This document shows positions 1,892 through 59,577 of a DNA stretch of 64,000 bases, piece after piece (position 1 is the stretch's first letter; the number at the start of each line of letters is the position of its first letter). Source of the stretch: a virus; IMG/VR virus record IMGVR_UViG_2974791188_000001, positions 5,603 to 69,602 of that record; one strand, given 5' to 3'. Below the pieces are notes generated by a model. The model saw nothing but the letters and a program-made list of their open reading frames with translations. It ran no database searches and had not been told where the DNA came from. A program made the translations under genes and the position numbers.

Positions 1892-3387
1892 TGAGCCAAA
1901 TCCTGTTTCAGGACTACCGTCAGCCCGACCAGTTCTTGTATCTGAACGAAGAGCCTGGGGTTCTAGTCCAAGCTAAGGCGATTTTGGATCGCGCTAAGAA
2001 GATGTGGGCTGATGCTGAGACCGAGACTGCGCGCCTCGACAGTATCGACAAGTGGTACAAGGGCACGCAGGACCCGTATTCGATTCGGGGTGCGGCTTCG
2101 GAGGTTAAGGAACTTAATGAGCTTGCTCGGACGCCGTGGCTGGGGCTGGTTGTTACGACCATTGCGCAGGCCATGTTCGTGGATGGTTACCGTTCCCCGG
2201 TTACCGGTTCTGATGTTCCCGGTCCTTGGAACATCTGGAATGCCAACGGTATGGCTAAGCGACAGATCCCTGTTCATCGCGCGGCCTTGGGATACGGGTA
2301 TTCGTACATTCTCGTAGAGCCTGGGGTTTCGCCGATCACGGGGCAGCCTATGGCCCGCATGCTCGGCATGTCTCCTAAGCGCTTGTTTGCGGTGTACAAC
2401 GATCCTGCTGTTGATGACTGGCCGGTCTACGCGTTGCGCATTGATCGGAGTATCGACGGTAAGACGAATCTGTACCTGTACGACAAGCTGTACAAGCACA
2501 CTATCCGGCGTGTTGACCGGGAGTGGGCGGTGTTGGCTACGGAACGTCACGGTGCGGCTGTCTGCCCGGTTGTGCGGTACACGAACAACTTGGATCTGGA
2601 CGGCCACACGCCTGGTGAGGTTGAACCGTTCATCGTTACTGCTTCGCGTGTCGATAAGTCGACGTTCGATCGTCTGTTGACTCAGCACTACAACTCGTGG
2701 AAGAAGTTCTGGATCGCTGGTCTCGCCGATATTACGTCGGACGAGGAGGCCCGTAAGAAGAAGATCCAGATTCGCCAGGATGGCGTCCTTATCGCTCCTG
2801 ATGTGGATACCAAGTTCGGCACTGTGGATGAGACGAACCTTGACGGGTTTGTTAACGCTATCGGCGCGGACATTGAGCATCTGTCGGCTATCGCACAGCT
2901 CCCTAGTCACCTGTTGACGGGCAAGCTGGTGAACCTGACTTCTGATGCGCTGTCGGCTGCTCGTGCACCGCTTACTCAGAAGGTGTTCGAGCGGCAGGTG
3001 TCGTTCGGCCAGTCCCATGCTCAGGCGTTGCGTCTGGCGTCGGCTATCCAGGGTGACACCACTGGGGCTTCGGATGTGTTGGCGCGTGTGACGTGGCAAG
3101 ACATGGAGATTCGTTCGCTGGCTCAGGCTGCTGACGCTCTCGGCAAGATGGCTGTCCAGTTGGGTATTCCGCGTGTGGCTTTGTGGCGCATGATTCCGGG
3201 TGTCACTCAGGACGATATTGATGAGTGGTCGGAGCATCTGCTGGACGACGATCCGGTGTCGGTGTATCTGCGTGGCTTGAACGCTACGGGCCAGTCTGAT
3301 GGGCCGGGAGATCCGGCTAAGGACAGTCCGGAGGCTGATAAGGGCACTGCCGATCCGGAGAAGGATTCCGCGTCGGGTGGTAGCTGA
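1891..3387 (+). CDS. portal protein
   Basis: 498 aa, ATGA overlap with terminase stop; size and position between terminase and MuF-like gene. Confidence 0.8.
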   Translation: MSQILFQDYRQPDQFLYLNEEPGVLVQAKAILDRAKKMWADAETETARLDSIDKWYKGTQDPYSIRGAASEVKELNELARTPWLGLVVTTIAQAMFVDGYRSPVTGSDVPGPWNIWNANGMAKRQIPVHRAALGYGYSYILVEPGVSPITGQPMARMLGMSPKRLFAVYNDPAVDDWPVYALRIDRSIDGKTNLYLYDKLYKHTIRRVDREWAVLATERHGAAVCPVVRYTNNLDLDGHTPGEVEPFIVTASRVDKSTFDRLLTQHYNSWKKFWIAGLADITSDEEARKKKIQIRQDGVLIAPDVDTKFGTVDETNLDGFVNAIGADIEHLSAIAQLPSHLLTGKLVNLTSDALSAARAPLTQKVFERQVSFGQSHAQALRLASAIQGDTTGASDVLARVTWQDMEIRSLAQAADALGKMAVQLGIPRVALWRMIPGVTQDDIDEWSEHLLDDDPVSVYLRGLNATGQSDGPGDPAKDSPEADKGTADPEKDSASGGS

Positions 3388-4394
3388 TGGCCGAATCCGA
3401 GGATCAGTCGCTATGGGAGTTGCTGGCTGCTTGGCTTATCGGTAAGCACACAGCTAAGCAGGAGGAGATCGCGGACACGGTCCGGAATGGTGTGATCCGC
3501 CAGTTCCGGTCCTTGGACTTCAACAACCTGGACCGCACTCAGGTTCCGTGGATTGAAGCCACTATGCCGTCCGTCCGTTGGGGCTATGAACGTTCCCAGC
3601 AGGCCACTTCTTCGTTCATTACTGACTATCGCAAGATGAGGCTACAGGAAGCCGACGACGAGGATGACGGGATTGATCCGGTCATCACTGCGCGGCAGGC
3701 CGACAGGATTGGTGCTGTCGACCGGTCTGTGGCCGCCCCGTTCAATGAGCAGAAGGCTGCTGTTCAACTGCTCACGACGGGACCGGCTCGGGTTAAGAAG
3801 GCTATGCCGACGCCTGAGTCGGACGCTATGGCTAAGGGCCTTAAGGGGGCTATTGGGGCTGCTATCCAGGTTGCGATGGATGGTGGCCGTGGTGTTGCTG
3901 AGGGTGAGACGCGCCGCGATCAGAAGGTGATTGCTTGGCAGCGGATCACGGACTCTAACCCTTGCTATTTCTGTGCTCTCTTGGCGGCTAATGGGCCGGT
4001 TGAGACGCGCACTATCTACCGCAACAACAAGGCTTGGAATGTGAATCGCCGAACTAAGAAGGCGTTCGTTCCTAATGCTGCGTTTGAGGCTACTGGCGAA
4101 CCTGACAATATCGCTAAGGCCCACGACCATTGCCGCTGCACTCTTGTGCCGGTGTATGGGAATTTCCATGTGTCTGAGGTAGCCAAGGAGGCTGCTGAGC
4201 TGTGGAAAGAGGCTTCTACGGGGGTTTCCCCTAAGGAGGCTTTGAACAACTATCGGCGCGCTTATGACGCGTTGCGTAGGTCTAGTCCGCTGGTGGATGA
4301 GCCGGTGGATACGGACGTTGTTCGCACCGCCCTTTTGGAGAGCGGTAATGCGGATCTTCGGGCTTGGGGTAATCGCCTTAAGCCTGCTTCTTGA
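3387..4394 (+). CDS. MuF-like minor capsid / head morphogenesis protein
   Basis: 335 aa; C-terminal HDHCRCTLVP matches the conserved H-x-N/H-CRC motif of the Phage_Mu_F (SPP1 gp7) family; ATGA overlap with portal. Confidence 0.72.
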   Translation: MAESEDQSLWELLAAWLIGKHTAKQEEIADTVRNGVIRQFRSLDFNNLDRTQVPWIEATMPSVRWGYERSQQATSSFITDYRKMRLQEADDEDDGIDPVITARQADRIGAVDRSVAAPFNEQKAAVQLLTTGPARVKKAMPTPESDAMAKGLKGAIGAAIQVAMDGGRGVAEGETRRDQKVIAWQRITDSNPCYFCALLAANGPVETRTIYRNNKAWNVNRRTKKAFVPNAAFEATGEPDNIAKAHDHCRCTLVPVYGNFHVSEVAKEAAELWKEASTGVSPKEALNNYRRAYDALRRSSPLVDEPVDTDVVRTALLESGNADLRAWGNRLKPAS

Positions 4395-24004: not shown

Positions 24005-24812
24005 GTCTTCGATCACCCGGACCCAGATTTCACCGAACAAGCATTACGGGGGCCGGGACGTCGACTGGGTTGTGATCCACACTCAGGAGGGCAATGGGCG
24101 GGCGCGGGACATTATCCCGTTCTTGTGCAACCCGGCGTCTCAGGTGTCCTACAACGCGGTTGTTGACGATGTGGAGTCGGTGCTTGTGGTGCCGTGGGAT
24201 GCCAACCCGTGGGCGGCGTCCAACGCTAACTCCAGGGGCGACCATCTACTTTCGGCCGGCTCTTTCGCTAAGTGGTCTAAGGCTAAGTGGCTTGAGACGG
24301 ATGCGCGTGACGGCAAGAACGAGAACGCGCAGATGGATCGGCTGGCGTTGCTGACGGCGTGGCGGTGCAAGGTTCGGGGTATCCCCCCGGTGTATGTGGG
24401 CGGCAAGGGCCGTCCTTCTAAGCCCGGTATTTGCGGGCATGTCGACTTTGGCGCTTGGGGTGGTGGTCATACCGACCCTGGGCCGAACTTTCCCTGGATC
24501 GAGTTCATTAAGCGCGTCCAGGACTTCTACTACGGTGAGGATTTTGATATGGCCGCTAAGGACGAAGTTATCAACTTCATTAAGAGCTTCGTCGGGCCGA
24601 TCGTGTCCGACGTTAAGGACATTCGTCAGCAGCTCACGGGTGGCCGTGACTATGGCGAGTATCCGGGCTGGAAGCAGCTCGGGCAGAACGCTAAGGGCGA
24701 GAACTTCACGATCGTTGACTCGTTGGCGGATACCCGTCAGCGGGTGATCGGCTTGGTGGATCTTGTTAAGGGTTTGGAGGCGCGGGTCTCCAAGTTGGAA
24801 GGTGGTAAGTGA
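23997..24812 (+). CDS. endolysin component, N-acetylmuramoyl-L-alanine amidase (amidase_2/PGRP)
   Basis: WVVIHTQEG ... GICGHVDFGAWGGGHTDPGPNFPW zinc-amidase motifs; GTG start in GTGGTTGA overlap. Confidence 0.75.
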   Translation: MVESSITRTQISPNKHYGGRDVDWVVIHTQEGNGRARDIIPFLCNPASQVSYNAVVDDVESVLVVPWDANPWAASNANSRGDHLLSAGSFAKWSKAKWLETDARDGKNENAQMDRLALLTAWRCKVRGIPPVYVGGKGRPSKPGICGHVDFGAWGGGHTDPGPNFPWIEFIKRVQDFYYGEDFDMAAKDEVINFIKSFVGPIVSDVKDIRQQLTGGRDYGEYPGWKQLGQNAKGENFTIVDSLADTRQRVIGLVDLVKGLEARVSKLEGGK

Positions 24813-25042
24813 TGGCTACTCAGGTTGAGCATCCTCGTCGGGCTGTTGTTCGGACGGTGTTCCAGGTTGTGATTGCCTTGGCGGCTGCGTTGCCCCTCAT
24901 TGTTGTGGCGTCGGGTGTTCCGGCGACTGCGGCTGGTGTGGGTGTGGCGTTGGCTGTTGCGGCTGGTGTTACTCGGGTGATGGCGCTGCCCGTGGTCAAT
25001 GATCTGATTGACCAGTATGTGCCTTGGTTGCGCACTGAGTGA
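24809..25042 (+). CDS. holin-like membrane protein
   Basis: 77 aa, two hydrophobic segments, directly after lysins. Confidence 0.5.
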   Translation: MMATQVEHPRRAVVRTVFQVVIALAAALPLIVVASGVPATAAGVGVALAVAAGVTRVMALPVVNDLIDQYVPWLRTE

Positions 25043-25413
25043 TTGAGCAAGTCGATCTGACGAGTGGTGGATGGTCCTCGATCATTCTGGTTGTGGGGTT
25101 CTTCTTCGCGGCTTTGGCTTCGGGGTTCATCCACTACTTGTACAAGAAGACGTCTCGTCTCCAAGCTGATTACGAGTCCTTGCGCCTGGACATGGAGAAG
25201 CTTAAGGAAGAGTCGCGGAAGCAGGAAGAGCGGCACCGGCAGGACCGTGAGAGCGACTACCGCATGATTAACCGCTTGCAGAATTTCATTGTGGACTTGC
25301 AGGTGTATGCGGCCCGGTTGCGGGGCATGCTTGCTGAGAAGGGTCAGGCTTCGCCTGTTCCTCCCGTGTTGGACGATGTTGACCTTGACCCTAAGGAGCT
25401 GGTCACCCCTTAA
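25039..25413 (+). CDS. membrane protein with coiled coil (holin/spanin-like)
   Basis: N-terminal TM then charged heptad-like region (LRLDMEKLKEESRKQEERHRQ). Confidence 0.45.
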   Translation: MIEQVDLTSGGWSSIILVVGFFFAALASGFIHYLYKKTSRLQADYESLRLDMEKLKEESRKQEERHRQDRESDYRMINRLQNFIVDLQVYAARLRGMLAEKGQASPVPPVLDDVDLDPKELVTP

Positions 25414-28054: not shown

Positions 28055-28064
28055 TTTCCGAACA
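28055..28064. promoter_or_regulatory. candidate operator half (TTTCCGAACA)
   Basis: exact inverted copy TGTTCGGAAA at 28150-28159 and a CCCGAACA copy at 28160-28167, all in the repressor/cro divergent intergenic region. Confidence 0.4.
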
Positions 28065-28149
28065 ATTTTGTGACTTGTTACCTGGGTTACGAAACGGTGT
28101 CTGACCAGCGTTTACCCGCCGTTTACCCCGACCGGTCAGCCGTGAAACA

Positions 28150-28167
28150 TGTTCGGAAACCCGAACA
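28150..28167. promoter_or_regulatory. candidate operator (inverted and direct copies of CCGAACA motif)
   Basis: see 28055. Confidence 0.4.
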
Positions 28168-28271
28168 GGGTCCTTGCGCCGCCGAACGACCCGGCCGTAG
28201 TGTCCTCAACCGTGAGCAGCACCACGGCGGCCAGGACGGCCGGAACGAAAGCCCAAAACCCCAGCTACGCA

Positions 28272-28484
28272 ATGGCTCTCGACTACAAACAAATCAACAA
28301 CCTGATGCAGGTCGCTGAAATTCCCAGCATCACCCGTCTCGCCAAGACCTCCGGTGTAAGCCGGACTGTCCTCACCGAGTTTATGGATGGCAAGCCCGGT
28401 GTCTCCGCTAAGACGGTCGGCGCGCTTGCCGGTGCTCTTGGCACCTACCCCGACCGAATAGCTCGCTGGATGCGTGCAGCATAA
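28272..28484 (+). CDS. Cro-like HTH (XRE-family) protein
   Basis: 70 aa; HTH ITRLAKTSGVSRTVLTEFMDG; divergent from repressor; the longer ORF from 28149 runs through the operator region and is rejected. Confidence 0.55.
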   Translation: MALDYKQINNLMQVAEIPSITRLAKTSGVSRTVLTEFMDGKPGVSAKTVGALAGALGTYPDRIARWMRAA

Positions 28485-29219
28485 CCCTCTCCCCCGACAA
28501 CTTCATTCGCCTGAGTAGCCCACGCCAGGGGTGCGAGTCCCTTGGCAGGCACGACGGAGATGCGCCTCTAGCGCCTCCCTCATTCTTTCATTCCCTTTGA
28601 ATCCGCGGTCTCCGTAGGTCTATTTGGCCTGCGCCCGTGCGGTTCGTGTTCCTTTCAGAACTTCATATGCCCGATGACGCTCCTGCCTAACGGTTTAAGA
28701 GTGCAGCCCCGTTGACTTGTCCGGGGAAGCAGCCTAAAGGGGTGGGTGTCGGGAAGTGGCAGAGCCACACAACACAAAGTCTTCACCTGCTGTTTGAGAC
28801 ATGCCGCAAACACATACACAACACACTCCTGCTTCCCCGTTGGGGTGTGGTGATCTGGCGACCAACGTCCTCAGCGTCAGAGCATTAGGTCAACCCACCA
28901 TACGAGTATGGGACGGCACAGCTAGGGCTAAAGCTGTGGGGTTAGGCCGTAAACAGTTCAGGTGAGGGCCGAAGCGAGACGCAACGTTACATGCGGTGGT
29001 AGTCCGATGTTTCCCTTATGAAACGGGGATAGTCCATGTCTGCCGAGGTAGTTCCATCTTTTCTTATTCCAATGTGGGGCCGGTGAGCCTCCTTGGCCGC
29101 GTTGCAGGTTTCTACGGTTCGATCCGACTTCGGCCTGCTGGTTCCTCCCTTCCCGAAACGGGTTGGGGGTTGAACCATCCATGTTCTACCAAGCAAACCA
29201 ACCCTTTAGGAGCACACAA

Positions 29220-29690
29220 ATGACCACTGCGGAACTGATCGACGAACTGCTCAAGCCCGCTCCGATGCCGGAGAAGATGCTAGAGGGTCGTTTCGTCACT
29301 GACGAAACGTTCATCGCGGCACTGACTAAGGCTGCTGTCCTCAATCCGGACTTCGTGTACGAGCCGCGCAAGACCGGCGAAGTACTCCACGATCAAGAGG
29401 TCACGGCCTGCAAGTACCTCAAGGAAGACGGCGTTACCGGCGACTGCGGCGTGGGTGTCGCGCTGATCGAGTGCGGCGTCAACCCGGAATGGCTCAAGCG
29501 CAAAGAGGGCGGCGGCGCTTACACCCTGCTCTCCCAACTGGGCCTGTCGGAACGGGTCCGGTCTATCGCTAGCAGTTTCCAGGAGCGCCAGGACACCGGC
29601 ACTTCGTGGGGCGAAGCGTTGCAGGAGTCGCTTACCAACACCGAGCGGTACGCACGGCGGGACGCTCACTACTACTCCCCTACCGTCTGA
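29220..29690 (+). CDS. hypothetical early protein
   Basis: 156 aa; AGGAG RBS before ATG 29220. Confidence 0.5.
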   Translation: MTTAELIDELLKPAPMPEKMLEGRFVTDETFIAALTKAAVLNPDFVYEPRKTGEVLHDQEVTACKYLKEDGVTGDCGVGVALIECGVNPEWLKRKEGGGAYTLLSQLGLSERVRSIASSFQERQDTGTSWGEALQESLTNTERYARRDAHYYSPTV

Positions 29691-40559: not shown

Positions 40560-41870
40560 TTGGTAGATGTTCTCAAGCGTGCGATTGATTCCACTAATCG
40601 TCACACTGATGAACAGATCCTTGTAGCAGCGTTGACTAGCTTCACCCTCAGGGATGAAGTCAAAGAGCTGGTGCCCCATCTAGCGGGTGCCGACTTCTAC
40701 AACGCGAACTACGGGAAAATCTGGGATGCAGCGGTAGGTCTCGTTGAAGACTCGCGCATCCTGTCCGTCGAGAATCTGTTGGGCAAGGTTAAGTCCGATG
40801 CCCAGAAGCAGATCCTTGACGATCTAGCCGGTACCCCGGTGCGACTGATTGAGGTCACGAGGGGTATCGAGATTGTTAAGAACGAGGCGATGAAGCGTCG
40901 CCTGTTCGAGGCGATGAGGGAATCCGCACAAACAGCCTCGTCGGCTGACAGTGTTGGTGAGGCGTTGGATGCCTTCCACACGAACTTGCAGCGGATCAAC
41001 GGTGAAGAGGTTGCAGCAGCTTCGGCCGGTATCGGTGAGGCGATCGGCGACTTCTGGCAAGACCTGGATCTCCCCGAGGATGAGAAAGAGCCACCGTTCC
41101 CTACGCCGTGGCTTGAACTGGATGAACGCCTTAACGGCGGGCTTAGGCGTGGCCGTCTCTACATTTGGGGCGGCCGTCCGGGTGAGGGTAAGAGCTTAGC
41201 TTGCTGCAACATTGCGGGCTTGGCTGCTGAGCGTGGCCTTAAGTCCATCTACTTCACTGCGGAAATGTCTAAGGGTGAGGTGACGGCCCGGATCTTGTGT
41301 GCGGGTGCTCAGGCTGATTACGGCCAGATCACTCGTGGGGACGTGGACGCTGCCAACCGGGCGATACTCTCTAATTACTCGGATGAGATCAAGGATGCTG
41401 ACCTTGAGATCGTGGACAAGCCTTCTATCTCGATCCGCGATATTCGGGCTATGTCTGCCGCTAAGCATCGTGCGGGTGGTCTTGACATTGTGTTCGTGGA
41501 CTACTTGCAGATGATCCAGCCTGATGACAAGTCGATTCCTCGTGAGCAGCAGGTGGCGGGTATCTCGTCTTCGCTCAAGGTGTTGGCTCGTCAGTTGAAT
41601 GTGGCTGTGGTGTGCGCGGTCCAGTTGAACCGTCCGCCTCAGCAGCAGGGGCGCGATAATTCGGGCGGGTCTAAGCCTCGTCCGACGTTGGAGTCGATTC
41701 GTGAGTCTGACCGTATCGGCCAGGACGCGGATGTGGTGATCTTGAATCACTGCCCTAATGGCAATACGCAGGCGGGTGTGGAGATGGAGTTCTGCATGCC
41801 GAAGTGTCGCACTGGCCGTCCGGGTGTGGTTAAGCGGATATGGCGGGCGGATCAAGCCCGGATTCAGTGA
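40560..41870 (+). CDS. dnaB: DnaB-family replicative helicase
   Basis: N-terminal DnaB domain; Walker A GGRPGEGKSLACCNIAG; DnaB-type C-terminal motifs; TTG start after GGAAAGGA. Confidence 0.85.
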   Translation: MVDVLKRAIDSTNRHTDEQILVAALTSFTLRDEVKELVPHLAGADFYNANYGKIWDAAVGLVEDSRILSVENLLGKVKSDAQKQILDDLAGTPVRLIEVTRGIEIVKNEAMKRRLFEAMRESAQTASSADSVGEALDAFHTNLQRINGEEVAAASAGIGEAIGDFWQDLDLPEDEKEPPFPTPWLELDERLNGGLRRGRLYIWGGRPGEGKSLACCNIAGLAAERGLKSIYFTAEMSKGEVTARILCAGAQADYGQITRGDVDAANRAILSNYSDEIKDADLEIVDKPSISIRDIRAMSAAKHRAGGLDIVFVDYLQMIQPDDKSIPREQQVAGISSSLKVLARQLNVAVVCAVQLNRPPQQQGRDNSGGSKPRPTLESIRESDRIGQDADVVILNHCPNGNTQAGVEMEFCMPKCRTGRPGVVKRIWRADQARIQ

Positions 41871-42080
41871 TCTGTCAGACGTGCGGTGCGGAGCTTTTGT
41901 GGTCTCCGTTTGGCCCTATCACTGAGTGGGGTTACGTCTGTCGGGATGACTACAACCCCACGTATGTGGGTCTGGATAACGAGGGCCTACACGTGGTAGC
42001 CCCGTTCACCTTTTAGCCCGTCTACGGGCTTCTCAGGCCGCGCAATCGCGGTTCTGTTCTCTAACCAAGGAGTTACATAT

Positions 42081-42443
42081 ATGGCAATGCCGACTATTTC
42101 TGGCAGCAACGCAACTGTCTTCGGCGGCAAGGATCAGGAACTCAAGTACGACGTCGGCCAGTACGGTGCCTACGTCCTGTTCAACCTGGGCATGCAGAAG
42201 GCCAAGAAGGACCAGTACGGCGAGTGGGAGACGACCGCTAAGACCACCATTAAAGCTGCCGCCTACGGTGAGCTTGCCGAGTTCATTAAGGACAACATTC
42301 AGCATCTCGACAAGGTCGACTTCACGGCCGAGATGACCGGTGTTGACCTGTGGGAAGGCAAGGACGGCACCCAGGCCAACATTCAGGTGAAGATCCTCAC
42401 CATTGGTGCACCGTTCCGTAAGAAGGAAGATTCGGGTTACTGA
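42081..42443 (+). CDS. hypothetical protein (strong RBS)
   Basis: AAGGAG before ATG; 120 aa. Confidence 0.5.
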   Translation: MAMPTISGSNATVFGGKDQELKYDVGQYGAYVLFNLGMQKAKKDQYGEWETTAKTTIKAAAYGELAEFIKDNIQHLDKVDFTAEMTGVDLWEGKDGTQANIQVKILTIGAPFRKKEDSGY

Positions 42444-42682
42444 TGAGTCACCCGGTACTTGAGTCTCTGGACTTCGAGGCTCGCTGCGAGTGCGAGTGGG
42501 TTCGTCCGGGTGAGACTCGGTCTCGTCGCTGTCACTACGGTTCGCCGGATCATCTGGTGACCTTGGTGACGCCTAAGAAGACGGTGGCCCGCCGAGCTGT
42601 GTGTGGGGGCTGCTTGGAGCGTTTGGAGTTTTCGGGCCGTCTGGTCGGCACGTGGAAGTCTTCCGCGTTGTCACCTGCCTGA
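42443..42682 (+). CDS. Cys-rich small protein
   Basis: ATGA overlap; CECEW...C..C pattern. Confidence 0.4.
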   Translation: MSHPVLESLDFEARCECEWVRPGETRSRRCHYGSPDHLVTLVTPKKTVARRAVCGGCLERLEFSGRLVGTWKSSALSPA

Positions 42683-45971: not shown

Positions 45972-46246
45972 TGGCAGACGAACCGAACGTTATCGAACTC
46001 AAGTCGCCTAGCGAGAAGGTCATCACCCTTGTGCATCCCTTCCCGCCTGGTATGGCGGCGCAAGTCCTTGAAGAACTCAAGATCATGCGCGGCGGGTTCG
46101 ACGAAATGATTGGCGACCTCCAAAAGCGTGTCGATCAGATGCGCGCGGCGGGCCTTGTGGAGCCTGCCCCGGTCGCTTACCTCGATGATTACCGGGCACG
46201 TAAGGCCGCTAAGGCGAGTGCTCTTGAACCTAAGGATATTGGTTGA
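45971..46246 (+). CDS. hypothetical protein
   Basis: ATG in TGATG overlap. Confidence 0.45.
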   Translation: MADEPNVIELKSPSEKVITLVHPFPPGMAAQVLEELKIMRGGFDEMIGDLQKRVDQMRAAGLVEPAPVAYLDDYRARKAAKASALEPKDIG

Positions 46247-47541
46247 TTCTCGACGACCCTAAGAACAACAACTATGCCGTGACTGTTGTGCGTGTCCCGG
46301 CTACCTATGATCTGGACGGCTTGGACAACCTGGTGGGTGTCAAGGTGTTCAATTCGCAGATCCTCACTCAGCGTGACGGTGTGGAGCCGGGTGAGTTGCG
46401 CCTGTACTTCCCGGCCGAGGTTCAGATTTCGGCCGAGTATGCCGAGTACAACAGCCTGTACAGCAGCGGCGCGGGCCTTAACCGTGACCCGGAAGCGAAG
46501 GGCTACTTGGCTAAGAACCGACGCGTGCGGGCTATCAAGCTTCGCGGTCACCGTTCGGACGCACTCCTGATGCCGCTCGATTCGCTCAAGTGCTTCACTG
46601 GCCGCTACGACTACCTGCAAGAGGGCGACACGTTCGACGTGATCGAGGGCCACGAGGTTGTCCGCAAGTTCGAGCTACCCCGCAACGAACCGAAGGCCGG
46701 CGCAACTAAGCTCGCTAAGGTTCTTAAGCGGGTAGACAAGGCTCTGTTCCCTGAGCACCTGTCGACCGACAACTTTTTCCGCAACTCGCACCTGCTCGAC
46801 GCGAAGCGTGAGGTTGTCATCACCCAGAAGTTGCACGGCACGAGCATCCGCGTCGGCCGTGTCCCGGTGCGCCGCGAGAAGGGCCGCTGGGAACGTTTCC
46901 TCAACCGCCTGGGCGCTGCCACCCCGGACTTTGCTCACGAGCCGGTATTCGGCTCCCGCAAGGTCATCAAGGAGGCCGACAACAGCCGCCAGAACCACTA
47001 CTACGGTTCGGACATTTGGACCCGTAAGGGTGCTGAGATTGTCGCGGACATTCCGGACGGCTTCATTGTTTACGGCGAGCTGGTCGGTTGGACCGAGGAC
47101 GGTTCTCCGTTGCAGAAGGGCTACACCTACGACGTGCCTAAGGGCCAGTCGGAGCTGTACGTGTATCGGGTTGCACGTATCGACGTGAACCGGACGCTCA
47201 CGGATCTGCCTTGGGACGGTGTTAAGCAGTTCTGCAAGGAACGCGGCTGGAAGCATGTTCCGGAGATTGATCGGATCATTCCGGACTTCTGGGAAGCTTT
47301 GGTCGGCGAGACGATGGTCGAGTTTGTTGAGGACATGATGGACCGCCGCTACACCGAGGCTTACCACAGCCCCATCGACAAGCCGGTCGCGCTGTCGGAC
47401 CCCAAGACTGTCGATGAAGGCGTATGCATCCGTCAGGACGCAATCGCCCCGCTCATCCTCAAGGCTAAGGCCCCGAAGTTCTTGCAGCACGAAACCAAGC
47501 AGCTCGATAAGGGCGAAGTCGACTTGGAGAGCGCGGCCTAG
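46243..47541 (+). CDS. ATP-dependent RNA ligase (Rnl2-like, KxHG motif I)
   Basis: nucleotidyltransferase motif I ITQKLHGTS (cf. T4 Rnl2 KIHGTN); TTGA overlap start. Confidence 0.6.
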   Translation: MILDDPKNNNYAVTVVRVPATYDLDGLDNLVGVKVFNSQILTQRDGVEPGELRLYFPAEVQISAEYAEYNSLYSSGAGLNRDPEAKGYLAKNRRVRAIKLRGHRSDALLMPLDSLKCFTGRYDYLQEGDTFDVIEGHEVVRKFELPRNEPKAGATKLAKVLKRVDKALFPEHLSTDNFFRNSHLLDAKREVVITQKLHGTSIRVGRVPVRREKGRWERFLNRLGAATPDFAHEPVFGSRKVIKEADNSRQNHYYGSDIWTRKGAEIVADIPDGFIVYGELVGWTEDGSPLQKGYTYDVPKGQSELYVYRVARIDVNRTLTDLPWDGVKQFCKERGWKHVPEIDRIIPDFWEALVGETMVEFVEDMMDRRYTEAYHSPIDKPVALSDPKTVDEGVCIRQDAIAPLILKAKAPKFLQHETKQLDKGEVDLESAA

Positions 47542-47732
47542 TGCAGAACGGGCAATCGCAGTGTTACGTGGCGTTCCCCGGCCACCAATTTGACGTGGGA
47601 TCGTTGCGCCTCGCATACGACCAGCTCATTGGCATGGGAGTTCCACGTACCCGAAAGCTGACAATCGAATCCGTGCCCAAGGTGGGCGACGAGAAGTGCG
47701 ACGGGATCGCATTTGTGGAGGTAGTTCCGTGA
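47541..47732 (+). CDS. hypothetical small protein
   Basis: 63 aa. Confidence 0.35.
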   Translation: MQNGQSQCYVAFPGHQFDVGSLRLAYDQLIGMGVPRTRKLTIESVPKVGDEKCDGIAFVEVVP

Positions 47733-48568
47733 CCGTACATCTTTGGGCGCAAAGCCTCGACGACAAAGAGCTACACCCCGTCCACCCATTCCAGTTCCCT
47801 GGCGGCGAATGGCACATCCAACTCGCATTCGACGACCCCAAGCGGTCCTACCAGTGGATCGCAGTCGTCTACGGGGCCAGCGCCGAAGACCTCGTGAAGG
47901 CAAGCCTGCTGGCCGACATTGCGTTGGAACGCGAGGAGCACTCCGTACTGCTCATCCCCTACCTGCCTGCGGCACGGGCAGACCGGGGAGTCCCGCTGGG
48001 ATTGAGTGTGTACGGCGGGATCATTAACGTTGCCTGCTTCGGTGACGTCGTCACCCTGGACGCGCACAACCCGGAAGCTGCCTACCGGGAAGTCAACGGG
48101 CTGGTGAATCTGTCGGCTACCCCGCTGGTCACCGCGACCGTCCAGTACCAGGACACGTTCACCGGGGTCATCGCACCCGACAAGGGGGCCGCGGATCGGG
48201 CAGGAGACGTAGCCCGCGCGCTCGGCGTCGAGCTGGTCGTTGCAGACAAGGCCCGCGACTTCGACACCGGACGGATCACTGGTCTTAGCTGCCCGAAAGT
48301 CGACCCTAAGGGCAACTACCTGGTGGTCGATGACATTTGTGACGGCGGCGGCACCTTCATGGGACTGGCCGAAGCGACCGGCCTGCCGCAAGATCGACTG
48401 TCCCTGTGGGTCACGCACGGCATCTTCTCGGGTAACGCGGCCAACCTGCTCAAGCACTACTACAAGGCTGTTTACACCACCGACTCTCACCCCGGTTCGG
48501 GGCAGCTCGGCATGTGGACGGTCAAAACCCCCACGTGGGCATACATGTTCAGAAAGGTCCAAGCATGA
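47729..48568 (+). CDS. ribose-phosphate pyrophosphokinase (Prs) homolog; candidate Adps of NARP1
   Basis: PRPP-binding loop LVVDDICDGGGT and Prs-like topology; GTGA overlap start. Confidence 0.72.
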   Translation: MTVHLWAQSLDDKELHPVHPFQFPGGEWHIQLAFDDPKRSYQWIAVVYGASAEDLVKASLLADIALEREEHSVLLIPYLPAARADRGVPLGLSVYGGIINVACFGDVVTLDAHNPEAAYREVNGLVNLSATPLVTATVQYQDTFTGVIAPDKGAADRAGDVARALGVELVVADKARDFDTGRITGLSCPKVDPKGNYLVVDDICDGGGTFMGLAEATGLPQDRLSLWVTHGIFSGNAANLLKHYYKAVYTTDSHPGSGQLGMWTVKTPTWAYMFRKVQA

Positions 48569-50043
48569 CCAAGTTCGCACCCATCGCTGCACTGATGCAG
48601 ACCGATGCTTACAAGCTTGACCACCGCAACCAGTACCAGTTGGCCGGCCGCGTTAGCCGTGTCTACTCGAACTACACCAACCGTAAGAGCCGCATCGACG
48701 GGGTCGACCACGTTGTGCACTTCGGGTTGCAGGCGTTCATCCAGAAGAACCTTGTGGAAGCGTTCGAGCCGTTCTTCGCGGCCGACGAGGATCTGGTGTG
48801 CGACCTGTACGAGGAGCGGGTTACGCAGATCCTTGGCCCGAACACGATTGGTTCGGATCACATTCGGGCCTTGCACCGTAAGGGCTACCTGCCGCTTCGG
48901 TTCTCTGCTCTGCCGGAAGGTACGCCGGTTCCGATCCGGGTTCCGTCGTTCGTCGTGGAGAACACCGAGGACGAGTTCTTTTGGCTGACCAACTATGTGG
49001 AGACGGCGCTTAGCGCTGGCGTGTGGCAGGCGTCTACGTCTGCGACGATTGCCCGCGAGTACCGGAAGATCCTCGACCAGGCCGCCGAGGCTACCGGTGG
49101 TGTCCGTGAGGCTGTCGACTTCCAGTGCCACGACTTCTCTTACCGGGGCATGTCGTCTCAGGAGTCGGCGCAGCTTAGCGGCGCTGCCCACCTGCTGTCG
49201 TTCAGCGGCACCGATTCGCTGGTGGCCTTGGACTGGATTGACCGCTACTACGGCGGCGAGTACGTCGCGGGATCAGTTCCAGCCACCGAACACTCGGTGA
49301 TGTGCACCGGCATTGAAGCCGTGGGCGAACAGGAGTTGTTCTCTAAGCTGCTGGACCTGTACCCGACTGGCATCTTCTCGGTGGTGTCTGACACGTTCGA
49401 CCTGTGGACGGTCCTGACCGAGTACCTGCCAGCACTTAAGGACAAGATCCTGGCGCGCGACGGCAAGCTGGTGATCCGCCCGGACTCTGGCGACCCGGAG
49501 AAGATCATTTGCGGAGACCCGGACGCCGAGACGGGGACCGCCGAATGGTTTGGTGTCGTCCGGCTGCTTCGGATGGCGTTTGGTTGCACCTGGAATGAGG
49601 CTGGCTTCCGCGAGTTGAACTCGCATGTAGGGGTCATCTACGGCGACTCCATCACCCTCGAACGCGCTAAGAGCATCACCGCGCGACTCGAATCTATGGG
49701 CTACGCATCCACCAACGTCGTGTTTGGTGTCGGCTCATACACCTACCAGCACAACACCCGCGACACGTTCGGCTCCGCGATGAAAGCCACATGGGCTGAG
49801 GTCGACGGTAAGGGCGTCAACCTGCTTAAGGACCCCATCACTGATGACGGCACGAAGAAGTCGGCTACGGGACGTCTGGCAGTCGTTAACAGCGAGTACG
49901 GCGGAGACCTCAAGCTCATCGAACGGGCAACCCCCGAAGCTGAGCAGTGGAGCCTCCTCAAGCCCATCTGGGAAAACGGACAGTTCGTACAGCGAGTTAC
50001 CTTCGCCGATGTACGGGCAACCCTGGCTAACGCGGGGGCTTGA
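48565..50043 (+). CDS. nicotinamide phosphoribosyltransferase (NAMPT/NadV) homolog; candidate Namat of NARP1
   Basis: TDAYKLDHRNQY...FSYRGMSS...SGTDS NAMPT family signatures; ATGA overlap start. Confidence 0.78.
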   Translation: MTKFAPIAALMQTDAYKLDHRNQYQLAGRVSRVYSNYTNRKSRIDGVDHVVHFGLQAFIQKNLVEAFEPFFAADEDLVCDLYEERVTQILGPNTIGSDHIRALHRKGYLPLRFSALPEGTPVPIRVPSFVVENTEDEFFWLTNYVETALSAGVWQASTSATIAREYRKILDQAAEATGGVREAVDFQCHDFSYRGMSSQESAQLSGAAHLLSFSGTDSLVALDWIDRYYGGEYVAGSVPATEHSVMCTGIEAVGEQELFSKLLDLYPTGIFSVVSDTFDLWTVLTEYLPALKDKILARDGKLVIRPDSGDPEKIICGDPDAETGTAEWFGVVRLLRMAFGCTWNEAGFRELNSHVGVIYGDSITLERAKSITARLESMGYASTNVVFGVGSYTYQHNTRDTFGSAMKATWAEVDGKGVNLLKDPITDDGTKKSATGRLAVVNSEYGGDLKLIERATPEAEQWSLLKPIWENGQFVQRVTFADVRATLANAGA

Positions 50044-50044
50044 G

Positions 50045-50347
50045 TTGGCTGACGGTAGCTGGTGGGCCTTGGAGAATCCGGGCCGATACAGGATCGAATC
50101 ACTCAAGTGCGACGTTGAGGTCGACTGGCCTGCGTACTCATTCGGCTCTCTCGAATCGCCACGGCCCCGGAAGTATCTGACACTAATCGAACTGACTAAC
50201 GGCCGAACCACCACGGTGCTCAAGGCGTACACCGACCCGGACACGGACGAGAGCATTGTGGCGGCTTACGGCAAGGGCCAGCTTAAGGAGCTAAGCGTCT
50301 ACCTCGATGAGAAGCCCGACGCTTTCTCGTGGCGGAAGATCCACTAG
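50045..50347 (+). CDS. hypothetical protein
   Basis: TTG 2 nt after NAMPT stop; ORF open from 49844. Confidence 0.4.
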   Translation: MADGSWWALENPGRYRIESLKCDVEVDWPAYSFGSLESPRPRKYLTLIELTNGRTTTVLKAYTDPDTDESIVAAYGKGQLKELSVYLDEKPDAFSWRKIH

Positions 50348-51796: not shown

Positions 51797-51860
51797 CCGC
51801 GCTTGGCTGTGCGCGTAAACAGTCCGCCGCTGCCGACCGGCGTAAAACGGTACGGCTTCC

Positions 51861-51933
51861 GCCTTAGAAACCGAATTGGCTAGGTGCCTGACTTCCAATC
51901 AGGATTTTGCGGGTTCAAGTCCCGTCTAAGGCT
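51861..51933 (+). tRNA. tRNA-Gly (TCC)
   Basis: perfect 7-bp acceptor gccttag/ctaaggc, anticodon loop ctTCCaa, T-arm gcggg-ttcaagt-cccgt; short D-stem. Confidence 0.7.
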
Positions 51934-52036
51934 CAATGGGACGCCAGAGATAAACGCTGGTGCGGTAGAAGCTGACCCGATTCAGAAACCCGCCGATTCC
52001 CGATCACCGATGGCTGCCGGTATATGCAGTTTCTAA

Positions 52037-52112
52037 CTCTCCGTAGCTCAGTTGGTCTTAGAGCAGGGCACTCTTAATGCTCGGGTCGCAGGTTCGAGTC
52101 CTGCCGGGGAGA
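52037..52112 (+). tRNA. tRNA-Lys (CTT)
   Basis: acceptor ctctccg/cggggag, D-arm gctc-agttggtctta-gagc, anticodon loop ctCTTaa, T-arm gcagg-ttcgagt-cctgc. Confidence 0.75.
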
Positions 52113-52150
52113 CGTAGTGGGAGACGGGGGTTCGATTCCCTCCATGCGCG
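52113..52150 (+). pseudogene. tRNA-like 3' fragment (T-arm plus acceptor-like) without a matching 5' half
   Basis: ggggg-ttcgatt-ccctc T-arm-like element 38 nt after tRNA-Lys; no complementary acceptor 5' strand found. Confidence 0.3.
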
Positions 52151-52358
52151 CTGTAGCTTAATGGTAGAGCACCCACGCTTTGCAAATATGTTCCGGATGG
52201 CCCGCTCAAGGGATACGGCGCATAGAGCTAAGAGGTTGTAAGCCCGTAAAGCCCAACCCTTAGTCTCCGCAGGTTCGCCACCGAACTACCTGCGTTATCA
52301 AAACCCACGTGAATTGAGGCCGAAGGGCCGGTGGGCCTTAGTTGGAAGGGTGGACCCA

Positions 52359-52441
52359 GGGCTTGTGGCGGAATTGGCAGACGCGCCGGATTCAAAATCC
52401 GGTACTCATTGAGTGTGTGGGTTCGAGTCCCACTAAGCCCA
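52359..52441 (+). tRNA. tRNA-Leu (CAA)
   Basis: acceptor gggcttg/taagccc, anticodon loop ttCAAaa, long variable arm, T-arm gtggg-ttcgagt-cccac. Confidence 0.75.
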
Positions 52442-52442
52442 C

Positions 52443-52655
52443 ATGGAAAACACTGACATTCACAACCGGTTCGCCTTCCACCCGGCCACCACGGCTGAAA
52501 AGAAGGGTGCCCACGGCAGTATCCGAGAGGCAATGCTGTCGACCGCGCTCTACGTGAACAACAACGTTCCGGACGGCCGCGAAAAGTCTCTGGCTATCAC
52601 CGCCCTGGAAGAGGCTATGTTCTGGGCCAACGCTGCCATCGCACGAGCAGTGTAG
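52443..52655 (+). CDS. hypothetical protein
   Basis: 70 aa, starts 2 nt after tRNA-Leu. Confidence 0.45.
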   Translation: MENTDIHNRFAFHPATTAEKKGAHGSIREAMLSTALYVNNNVPDGREKSLAITALEEAMFWANAAIARAV

Positions 52656-59112: not shown

Positions 59113-59577
59113 ATGGGAAGGCACTCTAAGCCGGTAGAAGTCGATGATCGCGGCCACCCACGCCTCAATCGTGTCAACCTTGAGGTTCTTGGGGACCGAC
59201 AATCCGGTAAGACCGAAACCATCCTTAGGGCACTGTTCTATGACTTGGTAGTTGAGGATAAGCAAGTCTTGTATCTGTGCCGCAATCAGTTGCAGGCCCA
59301 GGAAGTGTTCCACCGGTTCGATTCCATGCTTCCACGCACTAAGTTCATCCGGCGTAGAAGCTTAGGCACCTTGGATATGCGCGCGGAATGCGGCAGGGGA
59401 CGCATCTGCTTCCGGTCTATCAATGGCAGCGGCCACAGGGGCGTGTCGGTTGACACTGTTGTGCTCGACGACTGCGGACCCATCCCGGACGACGACTGGT
59501 GCTCACTGTTCATGTCAACCATCCAGTCCGATGAACCGAGAATGATCGTTATATCGACAGGGGGTGCGCCGCAATGA
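59113..59577 (+). CDS. small P-loop NTPase
   Basis: Walker A GDRQSGKTE and Walker B VVLDDCG; GGAGGA RBS. Confidence 0.45.
   Translation: MGRHSKPVEVDDRGHPRLNRVNLEVLGDRQSGKTETILRALFYDLVVEDKQVLYLCRNQLQAQEVFHRFDSMLPRTKFIRRRSLGTLDMRAECGRGRICFRSINGSGHRGVSVDTVVLDDCGPIPDDDWCSLFMSTIQSDEPRMIVISTGGAPQ

Follow-up and report, generated by a model that had tools for sequence, protein, structure and literature searches.

A conserved, structured non-coding RNA between cro and the early genes of Gordonia phage Octobien14 and its cluster DU relatives

We analyzed a ~735-nucleotide (nt) gap between the cro-type gene and the early genes of an actinobacteriophage, and we find that it holds a structured, non-coding RNA shared with related phages. 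The window, meaning the whole 64,000-nt stretch of viral DNA under study (from IMG/VR record IMGVR_UViG_2974791188_000001), is Gordonia phage Octobien14 (NC_060134.1, 100% identical over the region; record positions exceed window positions by 5602). This temperate siphovirus belongs to genus Octobienvirus of the Deeyouvirinae, in cluster DU. Positions below are those of the window unless another record is named. The original prediction, made from the letters alone, had placed a non-coding gap at 28485-29219, and both its existence and its coordinates are right: the cro-type gene, which encodes a helix-turn-helix protein of the Cro/C1 type, stops with TAA at 28482-28484, and the next gene, gp47, has its ATG at 29220. 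The gap does end, as had been proposed, at the ribosome-binding site (RBS) of the first early gene, gp47 being the first of ~45 rightward early genes. The immunity repressor gene diverges from cro, and a −10 element common to Octobien14 and phage Trax (TAGTGT at 28199) likely marks the early rightward promoter, P_R, upstream of the region. The structured RNA starts 24 nt past the cro stop in Octobien14 and, in genus Nevillevirus, 6 nt past the stop of an upstream gene annotated as excise. In both genera, the first gene 3′ of the region is a gp47 homologue.

That the gap contains no protein-like open reading frame (ORF) was borne out, though ORFs of up to 75 amino acids (aa) are present and two are annotated in GenBank, gp45 on the minus strand and gp46 on the plus strand. 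Codon-usage log-odds for all seven gap ORFs of at least 45 aa fell between −0.26 and −0.49, where a wrong-frame null averages −0.41 and real small genes average +0.33, and neither Pfam nor PHROGs gave a match for any gap ORF. The frames themselves are not conserved: that of gp45 is interrupted by a stop in Trax, the conserved blocks are separated by indels whose lengths are not multiples of three, and stops and 1-nt indels break the frames. The small ORFs that have been annotated also differ among the six sister phages and from those of Octobien14. Because the annotations mutually disagree and fail these coding tests, the small genes annotated in the region in all seven GenBank records, gp45 and gp46 included, are probably annotation artefacts. 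We therefore hold it highly improbable that the region encodes small proteins as annotated, even though ORFs of 46-75 aa are present and have been named as genes.

A related region was found in seven phages only, namely, Octobien14, Kudefre, Syleon, and Sephiroth, which are ~95% identical in the region, and Trax, Neville, and Rabbitrun of genus Nevillevirus. Identity to Kudefre is 96-100% in the region vs 40-80% in the flanking genes; across the genome, the median identity of the two phages in 200-nt windows is 81.5%, with only 8% of windows reaching at least 95%. The region's run at or above 95% extends over 550 nt, which is among the longest in the genome and comparable to that of the tRNA array. 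Among the four Octobienviruses, there are zero substitutions at 28733-28945 (213 nt), and identity to Kudefre collapses in the variable linker (29178-29219). In an 8-kb neighborhood compared with Nevillevirus by blastn, few stretches align, and the sole non-coding one is 28506-28667, the 5′ ~160 nt of the region. A short-word comparison revealed further collinear islands (GTTGACTTGTCC, GGTGTCG, CCTGCTTCCCCGTTGG, and GCAGGTT/GGTTCGATCC/CTGGTTCC), and the central domains of the two genera are not alignable with each other.

Additional relatives were sought in several ways. When the Octobien14 and Trax regions were compared with INPHARED by blastn, and IMG/VR was scanned for exact occurrences of four motifs, nothing was recovered beyond the seven DU phages and chance matches. 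Scanning one Joint Genome Institute (JGI) metagenome gave two matches, both due to chance, and protein-guided searches with gp47 and cro brought up a single additional homologue, of gp47, on a JGI contig of 2.5 kb that does not carry the element. Nothing usable turned up in the literature on cluster DU phages, on RNA-seq of related phages, or on actinobacterial boxA sequences. As an aside, Octobien14 and Kudefre share further long runs with an identity of at least 95%, of which the longest (24549-25349, 41849-42549, and 51849-52599) cover the end of the lysis cassette, the end of a DnaB-like helicase gene with the short gene that follows, and the tRNA array; this is the mosaic pattern against which the region was judged.

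Among the possibilities raised in the original prediction was a structured non-coding RNA, to be checked by comparison with related phages, and this is where the comparison led: compensatory substitutions hold plus-strand helices in three independent comparisons, and local stability is confined to the plus strand. Between genera, 98.6% of cells in the 5′ module form standard pairs and seven pairs have changed on both sides, vs ~40% pairing and zero or one such change in a slid control, in which partners were shifted by 1-3 columns. Within Octobienvirus, there are three compensatory pairs (28604/28639, 29057/29074, and 29149/29165); in the consensus fold, wobble pairing tolerates the changes at 28946, 29146, and 29159, and every other change lies in an unpaired column. 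Because consensus folding avoids inconsistent pairs, we ran the test again on a fold computed by minimum energy for Octobien14 only. On that fold, Kudefre's 17 substitutions gave two compensatory pairs vs 0.08 expected (P about 0.001) and three broken pairs vs 5.9 expected. Within Nevillevirus, 17 pairs of a 159-pair consensus have changed on both sides, compared to one or two in slid controls, and a long-range helix of 16 base pairs (bp; Trax 3355-3370 with 3582-3597) shows TGA>CAC matched by TCA>GTG.

The helices are rich in G-U pairs, and only on the plus strand does local folding exceed the stability of shuffled sequences, with z from −2.1 to −2.8 across 28530-28710 and a z of −2.5 at 29070. 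Therefore, the structure belongs to the plus-strand RNA. The region is a ~0.7-kb untranslated, structured, non-coding RNA, conserved far above its flanking genes, whose helices are kept by compensatory substitutions on one strand. Conservation and covariation are what stand above chance here, and the small GC hairpins alone are unremarkable. The most conserved parts are loops and single-stranded tracts, while the stems covary. The parts of the RNA, along with the small annotations that overlap it, are collected in Table 1.

Table 1. Parts of the structured RNA after cro and small protein annotations at the locus (window positions unless a sister locus is named; HP, hairpin)
Feature	Position	Strand	Remarks
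HP1, tRNA-Leu-derived minihelix	28509-28551	+	Kept in all 7 phages; one compensatory pair (A-U to G-C)
HP2, short hairpin GGAG..GCGC-CUCUA-GCGC..CUCC	28556-28578	+	Predicted in all 7 phages
Invariant pyrimidine tract UCCCUCAUUCUUUC	28576-28589	+	Identical in all 7 phages; unique in window
HP3, 18-bp irregular hairpin, then U-rich tail	28599-28645	+	Four compensatory pairs; found from Octobien14 alone
Conserved block UGUUCCUUUCAGAACUUCAUA	28647-28667	+	18 nt nearly identical in all 7 phages
Hairpin CCCCG-UUGACUUGUC-CGGGG with conserved 12-mer GUUGACUUGUCC, then CGGGGAAGCAG	28707-28732	+	The "−35 box" of the original prediction
Central domain, predicted long-range helix 28779-28796 with 28950-28969	28779-28969	+	Consensus fold of 4 Octobienviruses
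UUCCCC-loop hairpin, apex 16-mer CCUGCUUCCCCGUUGG	28822-28849	+	16-mer identical in Trax
Helix 29051-29057 with 29074-29080	29051-29080	+	29057 U>A with 29074 G>U (U.G to A-U), Octobienvirus
3′ tRNA-like module: hairpin A 29083-29100, hairpin B 29104-29138	29083-29138	+	Predicted folds
3′ extended hairpin UGGUUCCUCCC..CCCG-AAA-CGGG..GGGGGUUGAACCA	29139-29177	+	Found from Octobien14 alone
Variable linker and gp47 RBS (AGGAG 29208-29212)	29178-29219	+	Before gp47 ATG 29220
Small "hypothetical protein" annotations in region	28655-28819; 29083-29223	−; +	Octobien14
Small "hypothetical protein" annotations, sister loci	L002 3226-3396, 3504-3671; L006 3159-3260, 3330-3413, 3539-3694		

The 5′ module (28509-28667) consists of three consecutive hairpins, HP1 to HP3, and two pyrimidine-rich tracts. 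In Syleon, the HP2 stem is lengthened by matched insertions on both sides, and in Trax and Rabbitrun, it has another sequence with the pairing retained. The first tract, UCCCUCAUUCUUUC, is C-rich and G-poor, resembles both the anti-Shine-Dalgarno sequence and a rut site, and coincides with the maximum of the C/G ratio in both genera. HP3 owes three of its compensatory pairs to differences between the genera and the fourth to a change within Octobienvirus (28604 C>U with 28639 G>A); local z values here are −2.1 to −2.8 for the plus strand and about 0 for the minus strand. A terminator scan identified one terminator-like sub-hairpin in HP3, with the scan's total count at chance level. The UCCUUUC in the second tract, UGUUCCUUUCAGAACUUCAUA, is presumably shared with the 3′ tail of 16S rRNA. 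This block also agrees at 10 of 13 positions, with one insertion, with the extended rrn boxA region UGCUCUUUAACAA of Escherichia coli, and it is the sole match to a loose boxA-like expression in the 76-kb genome. The E. coli boxA core is UGCUCUUUA and the leader oligonucleotide is ugcucuuuaacaauuua (PMC2724277). We treat the boxA resemblance as a lead. The region's other motifs have no second copies in the genome. Two further ideas were discarded: the 16-nt direct repeats on either side of the 5′ module (28499 and 28659) have no conserved counterpart in Trax, and the similarity of the UCCCUCAUUCUUUC tract to a 16-mer beside the integrase gene (12/15) is no better than other chance matches in the genome.

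The landmarks singled out by the original prediction lie further downstream and are all present in the sequence. The CCCCG/CGGGG hairpin is at 28707-28726 with TTGACT at 28712-28717, and the listed hairpin CCCCGTTGGGG is at 28835-28845. The CA-rich tracts are there too (28767-28778 and 28809-28828), but they are not repeats according to Tandem Repeats Finder and occur in Octobienvirus only. The 12-mer GUUGACUUGUCC is conserved in both genera and lies in a hairpin loop in both consensus folds, and CGGGGAAGCAG is an 11-nt perfect complement to 28829-28839. Within the predicted central domain, which holds the CA-rich tracts and the UUCCCC-loop hairpin, the position of an indel, 28957-28958, is an internal bulge; in Nevillevirus, the 16-bp helix with its three adjacent compensatory changes closes the corresponding domain. 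The UUCCCC-loop hairpin is predicted independently in both genera, and, when we set the two folds side by side, its lower stem has changed on both sides (A-U to U-A, U.G to G-C). Around the helix at 29051-29080, other nearby changes are confined to the loop. In the 3′ tRNA-like module, hairpin B displays a T-loop-like GGUUCGAUCC at 29116-29125, found in both genera, and GCAGGUU, GGUUCGAUCC, and CUGGUUCC are collinear with Trax 3632-3651. The 3′ extended hairpin combines the compensatory pair 29149 C>U with 29165 G>A and the wobble-compatible changes at 29146 and 29159.

The connection to tRNA is clearest in HP1, which has a 5-bp acceptor stem (GCCUG/CAGGC), a T arm (AGGGG-UGCGAGU-CCCUU), discriminator A, and a class II D-loop remnant (TGGCAnACACG) without an anticodon arm. 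In an alignment with tRNA-Leu, it matches the T arm and acceptor, and the D stem, anticodon arm, and variable arm are missing. In tRNAs, the T loop has an invariant U at position 55, where Octobien14 HP1 has a G (standard tRNA numbering, our own reading). A 23-nt degenerate HP1 pattern, GGGGTKCGAGTCCCYYGRCAGGC, had five matches in 596 Gbp of genomes, four of which are tRNA-Leu(UAA) of Clostridia, and none in actinobacterial genomes, which were represented by one genome per species and in which a core shorter than 23 nt would escape. Judged by its sequence, HP1 is a truncated tRNA-Leu and not a copy of a host tRNA end, because the pattern hits mostly tRNA-Leu(UAA) and nothing actinobacterial. 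At default settings, ARAGORN reports no tRNA in the region, and the Rfam tRNA model has no match there at an expectation value (E) of ≤10. With introns allowed and at 90% of threshold, ARAGORN offers a weak "tRNA-Pro with 315-325 nt intron" in Trax and Rabbitrun only. We rejected an intron-split tRNA, given an acceptor stem with two G-U pairs and a mismatch and no Intron_gpI match, and we read these weak split-tRNA models around the 3′ module as tRNA-likeness, not as a gene. An ordinary tRNA and a tmRNA were likewise dropped, since ARAGORN models at lowered thresholds were weak.

An Rfam/Infernal scan, which the original prediction had put forward as a check, yielded no relevant match at E ≤ 10 in either Octobien14 or Trax. 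The families without a match include tRNA, transfer-messenger RNA (tmRNA), group I intron, YrlA, T-box, GOLLD, ROOL, mascRNA, and the small ribozymes, and at gathering scores, the whole window returns tRNAs only. The RNA family is undescribed; as a kind of element, structured RNAs with tRNA-like signals in phage early operons are already known. Elsewhere in the window, a sub-threshold full-length YrlA match (RF02553; 29.5 bits vs a gathering score of 69, E about 0.001) lies in the tRNA array at 52103-52200 (+), between tRNA-Lys and tRNA-Leu. This stretch contains a T-arm-like GGGGGTTCGATTCCCTCC and an apparent tRNA 5′ half, and its identity to Kudefre is 95% or more; the phage annotation lists no Ro/Rsr gene. 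T-loop-like 11-mers (GGTTCGATTCC) outside annotated tRNA genes at 59315 (+), 65966 (−), and 66753 (−) could be chance or further tRNA-derived elements.

The surrounding genes invite some observations of their own. The annotated start of gp44, the cro-like gene (111 aa, 28149-28484), is probably too far upstream: the N-terminal extension has wrong-frame codon usage, and the alignment of homologues begins at the Met in position 28272, for a length of 70 aa. The annotated gp44 ORF includes the likely P_R −10 element, and the same holds for the cro gene of Trax. In the repressor-cro spacer, identical inverted 10-mers, TTTCCGAACA, sit ~95 bp apart at 28055-28064 (+) and 28150-28159 (−) and are likely the operators of the immunity repressor; near-matches to them are enriched in the window (9 vs 3.3 expected). 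Further right, 46199-50049 encodes a polynucleotide kinase, an RNA ligase, a ribose-phosphate pyrophosphokinase, a nicotinamide phosphoribosyltransferase, and a nucleotidyltransferase, directly upstream of six tRNA genes. This set for RNA repair and nicotinamide adenine dinucleotide (NAD) salvage may bear on defence by tRNA-cleaving or NAD-depleting systems.

Several explanations would place the function of the region in its DNA or deny it a function, and the original prediction had named an early promoter hub, attP, and an origin among them. None fits well. We defined a SigA-type promoter as −35 and −10 hexamers 16-19 nt apart and conserved among relatives; a tool scan for sigma-70/SigA promoters gave no sites, and our own scan of both strands in four phages likewise gave none. 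The TTGACT box is conserved but has no valid −10 element, with a spacing of 17, 16, or 14 nt depending on the phage and TAAAGG as the Octobien14 candidate. A second early promoter at this box, with protein-binding sites that drive or gate the early genes, could draw on the conservation of GTTGACTTGTCC in both genera, with CCTAARG and GGTGTCG downstream, and on the recurrence of the octamer TGACTTGT in the repressor-cro intergenic region. Yet the TGACTTGT count is at chance, the operator-like 10-mers occur in the repressor-cro spacer only, upstream of cro, and compensatory changes and G-U pairs point to RNA and not to duplex DNA, so that with no promoter passing the scan, a hub of this kind appears improbable. 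A replication origin might be expected in a large non-coding region downstream of an early promoter, and weak direct repeats (GGTAGTCC/GATAGTCC/GGTAGTTCC) do occur at 28999-29055. However, these repeats lack conservation in Nevillevirus, iterons and tandem repeats are absent, the covariation is strand-specific, and GC content is 54-57% with no AT-rich tract and a featureless skew; we consider an origin very unlikely.

An attP whose core is a tRNA-like piece shared with a host tRNA gene has hardly any chance of being correct. The sequence does resemble a tRNA 3′ half, and in Nevillevirus, the gene annotated as excise is directly upstream. However, the tyrosine integrase gene (record 1764-2858) is 31 kb away, among leftward genes on the far left side of the genome, and beside it is a gap of 330 bp (2859-3187 in the Octobien14 record, outside the window) with two identical 16-mers, CTCCCGCATTCCTCCC, 220 bp apart and conserved in Kudefre, which is probably the true attP with arm-type sites. 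The idea that the region might match host tRNA 3′ ends also found no support in the actinobacterial genomes searched with GGGGTKCGAGTCCCYYGRCAGGC; moreover, the two genera share the same host strain and still differ in this sequence, Octobien14 has a G in place of U55, and the presence of the 5′ acceptor strand makes HP1 a whole truncated tRNA rather than a 3′ half. More can be said for a decaying remnant, either of old tRNA genes or of a mosaic recombination joint, that is conserved only through recent exchange: the fragments look tRNA-derived, identity drops sharply at both gene boundaries as it does at mosaic joints, and the genome has other high-identity patches. We nonetheless give this little credence, as compensatory substitutions occur in three independent comparisons, substitutions avoid paired positions, and the motifs survive across genera whose neighboring genes no longer align.

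We tentatively favor, at somewhat less than an even chance, a cis-acting checkpoint that separates cro from the delayed-early genes by processing, by termination and antitermination, or by both. The region would be an untranslated segment of the early rightward transcript, which would run from P_R through cro into the ~45 early genes; the SigA scans found no internal promoter in the region, and P_R is upstream. The checkpoint would act in cis between the immediate-early genes (cro, or cro and xis in Nevillevirus) and the delayed-early genes. With its acceptor stem and T arm, HP1 could be cut by RNase P at G28509, which would sever the cro mRNA from the rest. Passage of the polymerase would be set by the C-rich, rut-like tract, HP3 with its U-rich tail, and the boxA-like block, and the RNA ahead of gp47 would be shielded and shaped by the remaining fold. 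An untranslated operon head of 0.7 kb should be exposed to Rho; therefore, heavy structure or antitermination would be needed for the early genes.

A number of points weigh against this checkpoint or the evidence behind it. The folding energy of the whole region is not beyond that of shuffled sequence (z of −1.2 in Octobien14 and 0.0 in Trax). The comparison covers only seven phages in ~3 lineages, so that each covariation amounts to one or two events, and recent mosaic exchange could partly account for the high identity. HP3 departs from a canonical intrinsic terminator in that its stem is irregular and its U tail, GUGUUCCUUUC, is interrupted. The boxA resemblance is post hoc and set against the E. 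coli sequence only, and a second copy of the block, as in a nutL/nutR-type pair, is absent from the 76-kb genome. We also discarded sequestration of the gp47 Shine-Dalgarno sequence by a conserved partner, as it is predicted to be paired but with a partner that differs in each phage. Co-transcription with cro and processing are steps that we infer. Finally, ~0.7 kb with 213 invariant bases exceeds the needs of known cis checkpoints, which favors an RNA acting in trans.

Such a stand-alone RNA would arise if the transcript were cut at the tRNA-like modules by RNase P or RNase Z, releasing a stable RNA of ~0.6 kb that could pair its invariant C-rich single strands, CCUCCCUCAUUCUUUC and the UUCCCC loop, with purine-rich ribosome-binding sites or serve as a decoy or scaffold. 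tRNA-like elements are known to define the ends of some long RNAs, and here tRNA-derived elements are present at both ends. The size, multi-domain fold, and collinear invariant islands resemble those of large bacterial and phage RNAs, and the long substitution-free stretch among four phages and the concentration of conservation in loop and single-stranded tracts, with covarying stems, are in line with this possibility. The phage also invests in tRNA biology, with six tRNAs, an RNA ligase, a polynucleotide kinase, and a nucleotidyltransferase. Still, the scans found neither a promoter nor a terminator belonging to the region, which also lacks a match among known RNA families, has a central domain that cannot be aligned between genera, and has no complementary target in the phage genome, and we regard the trans-acting alternative as possible but on the unlikely side. 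The bolder form of this idea, a new class of large actinobacteriophage RNA of ~0.6 kb that is excised by host tRNA-processing enzymes and acts in trans early in infection, is doubtful; such an RNA may, for example, pair its C-rich tracts with ribosome-binding sites or act as a decoy for host defence nucleases that target tRNA or rRNA.

To our knowledge, RNA-level control has hardly been described in actinobacteriophages, despite thousands of sequenced genomes, and gaps of this kind are filled with invented small genes by annotation pipelines. In the present case, gp45, gp46, and their counterparts in the six other genomes should probably become an RNA feature in the annotation. If the cis-acting checkpoint is real, actinobacteriophages would have their first counterpart of lambda nutR/tR1 or HK022 put, and Rho and Nus biology could be approached through it in Gordonia and its Mycobacterium relatives. 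If the trans-acting RNA is real, it would add a new family to the few large phage RNAs known.

The put RNAs of phage HK022 are cis-acting antiterminator RNAs of about 70 nt that need no protein, and the 5′ module occupies what we take to be the position of putR. Like put, it presents consecutive stem-loops just after the early promoter and cro and could act on its own polymerase; unlike put, compared here by general description, the region measures ~700 nt and its first hairpin is tRNA-derived. Lambda nutR-tR1 has the same position, directly after cro, ~300 nt from the early promoter, and before the delayed-early genes. The layout also resembles that of nutR-tR1 and of rrn boxA, with hairpins, C-rich unstructured tracts, and a boxA-like block (UGUUCCUUUCAGAA vs UGCUCUUUAACAA in E. 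coli), and a hairpin followed by boxA is the order seen in rrn leaders (PMC2724277). The region differs from nut in having one copy in the genome, only a partial boxA match, to E. coli, and a size several times larger; no N-like protein or boxB turned up, although no search was aimed at an N-like protein. As in GOLLD and ROOL (PMC12286853, PMC5737381), the RNA is phage-borne, several hundred nt long, multi-domain, and associated with tRNA-like sequence. It departs from both in showing no covariance-model match even at E = 10, in its restriction to seven phages, and in lying inside the early operon and not beside a tRNA array.

The minimum that RNase P recognizes, in its minihelix substrates, is a T arm with an acceptor stem stacked on it and no anticodon arm; mascRNA at the end of MALAT1 is another tRNA-like processing signal. 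HP1 has this shape and lies at the boundary between two functional RNAs, but it carries two acceptor mismatches, a 3′ tail of ACGA rather than ACCA, and the G at T-loop position 55. Lastly, although the region is much larger than the C-rich-loop RNAs 6C and B11 of Actinobacteria and has no Rfam match, its conserved UUCCCC loop and its CCUCCC tracts on hairpins with covarying stems are reminiscent of them (PMC10470900).

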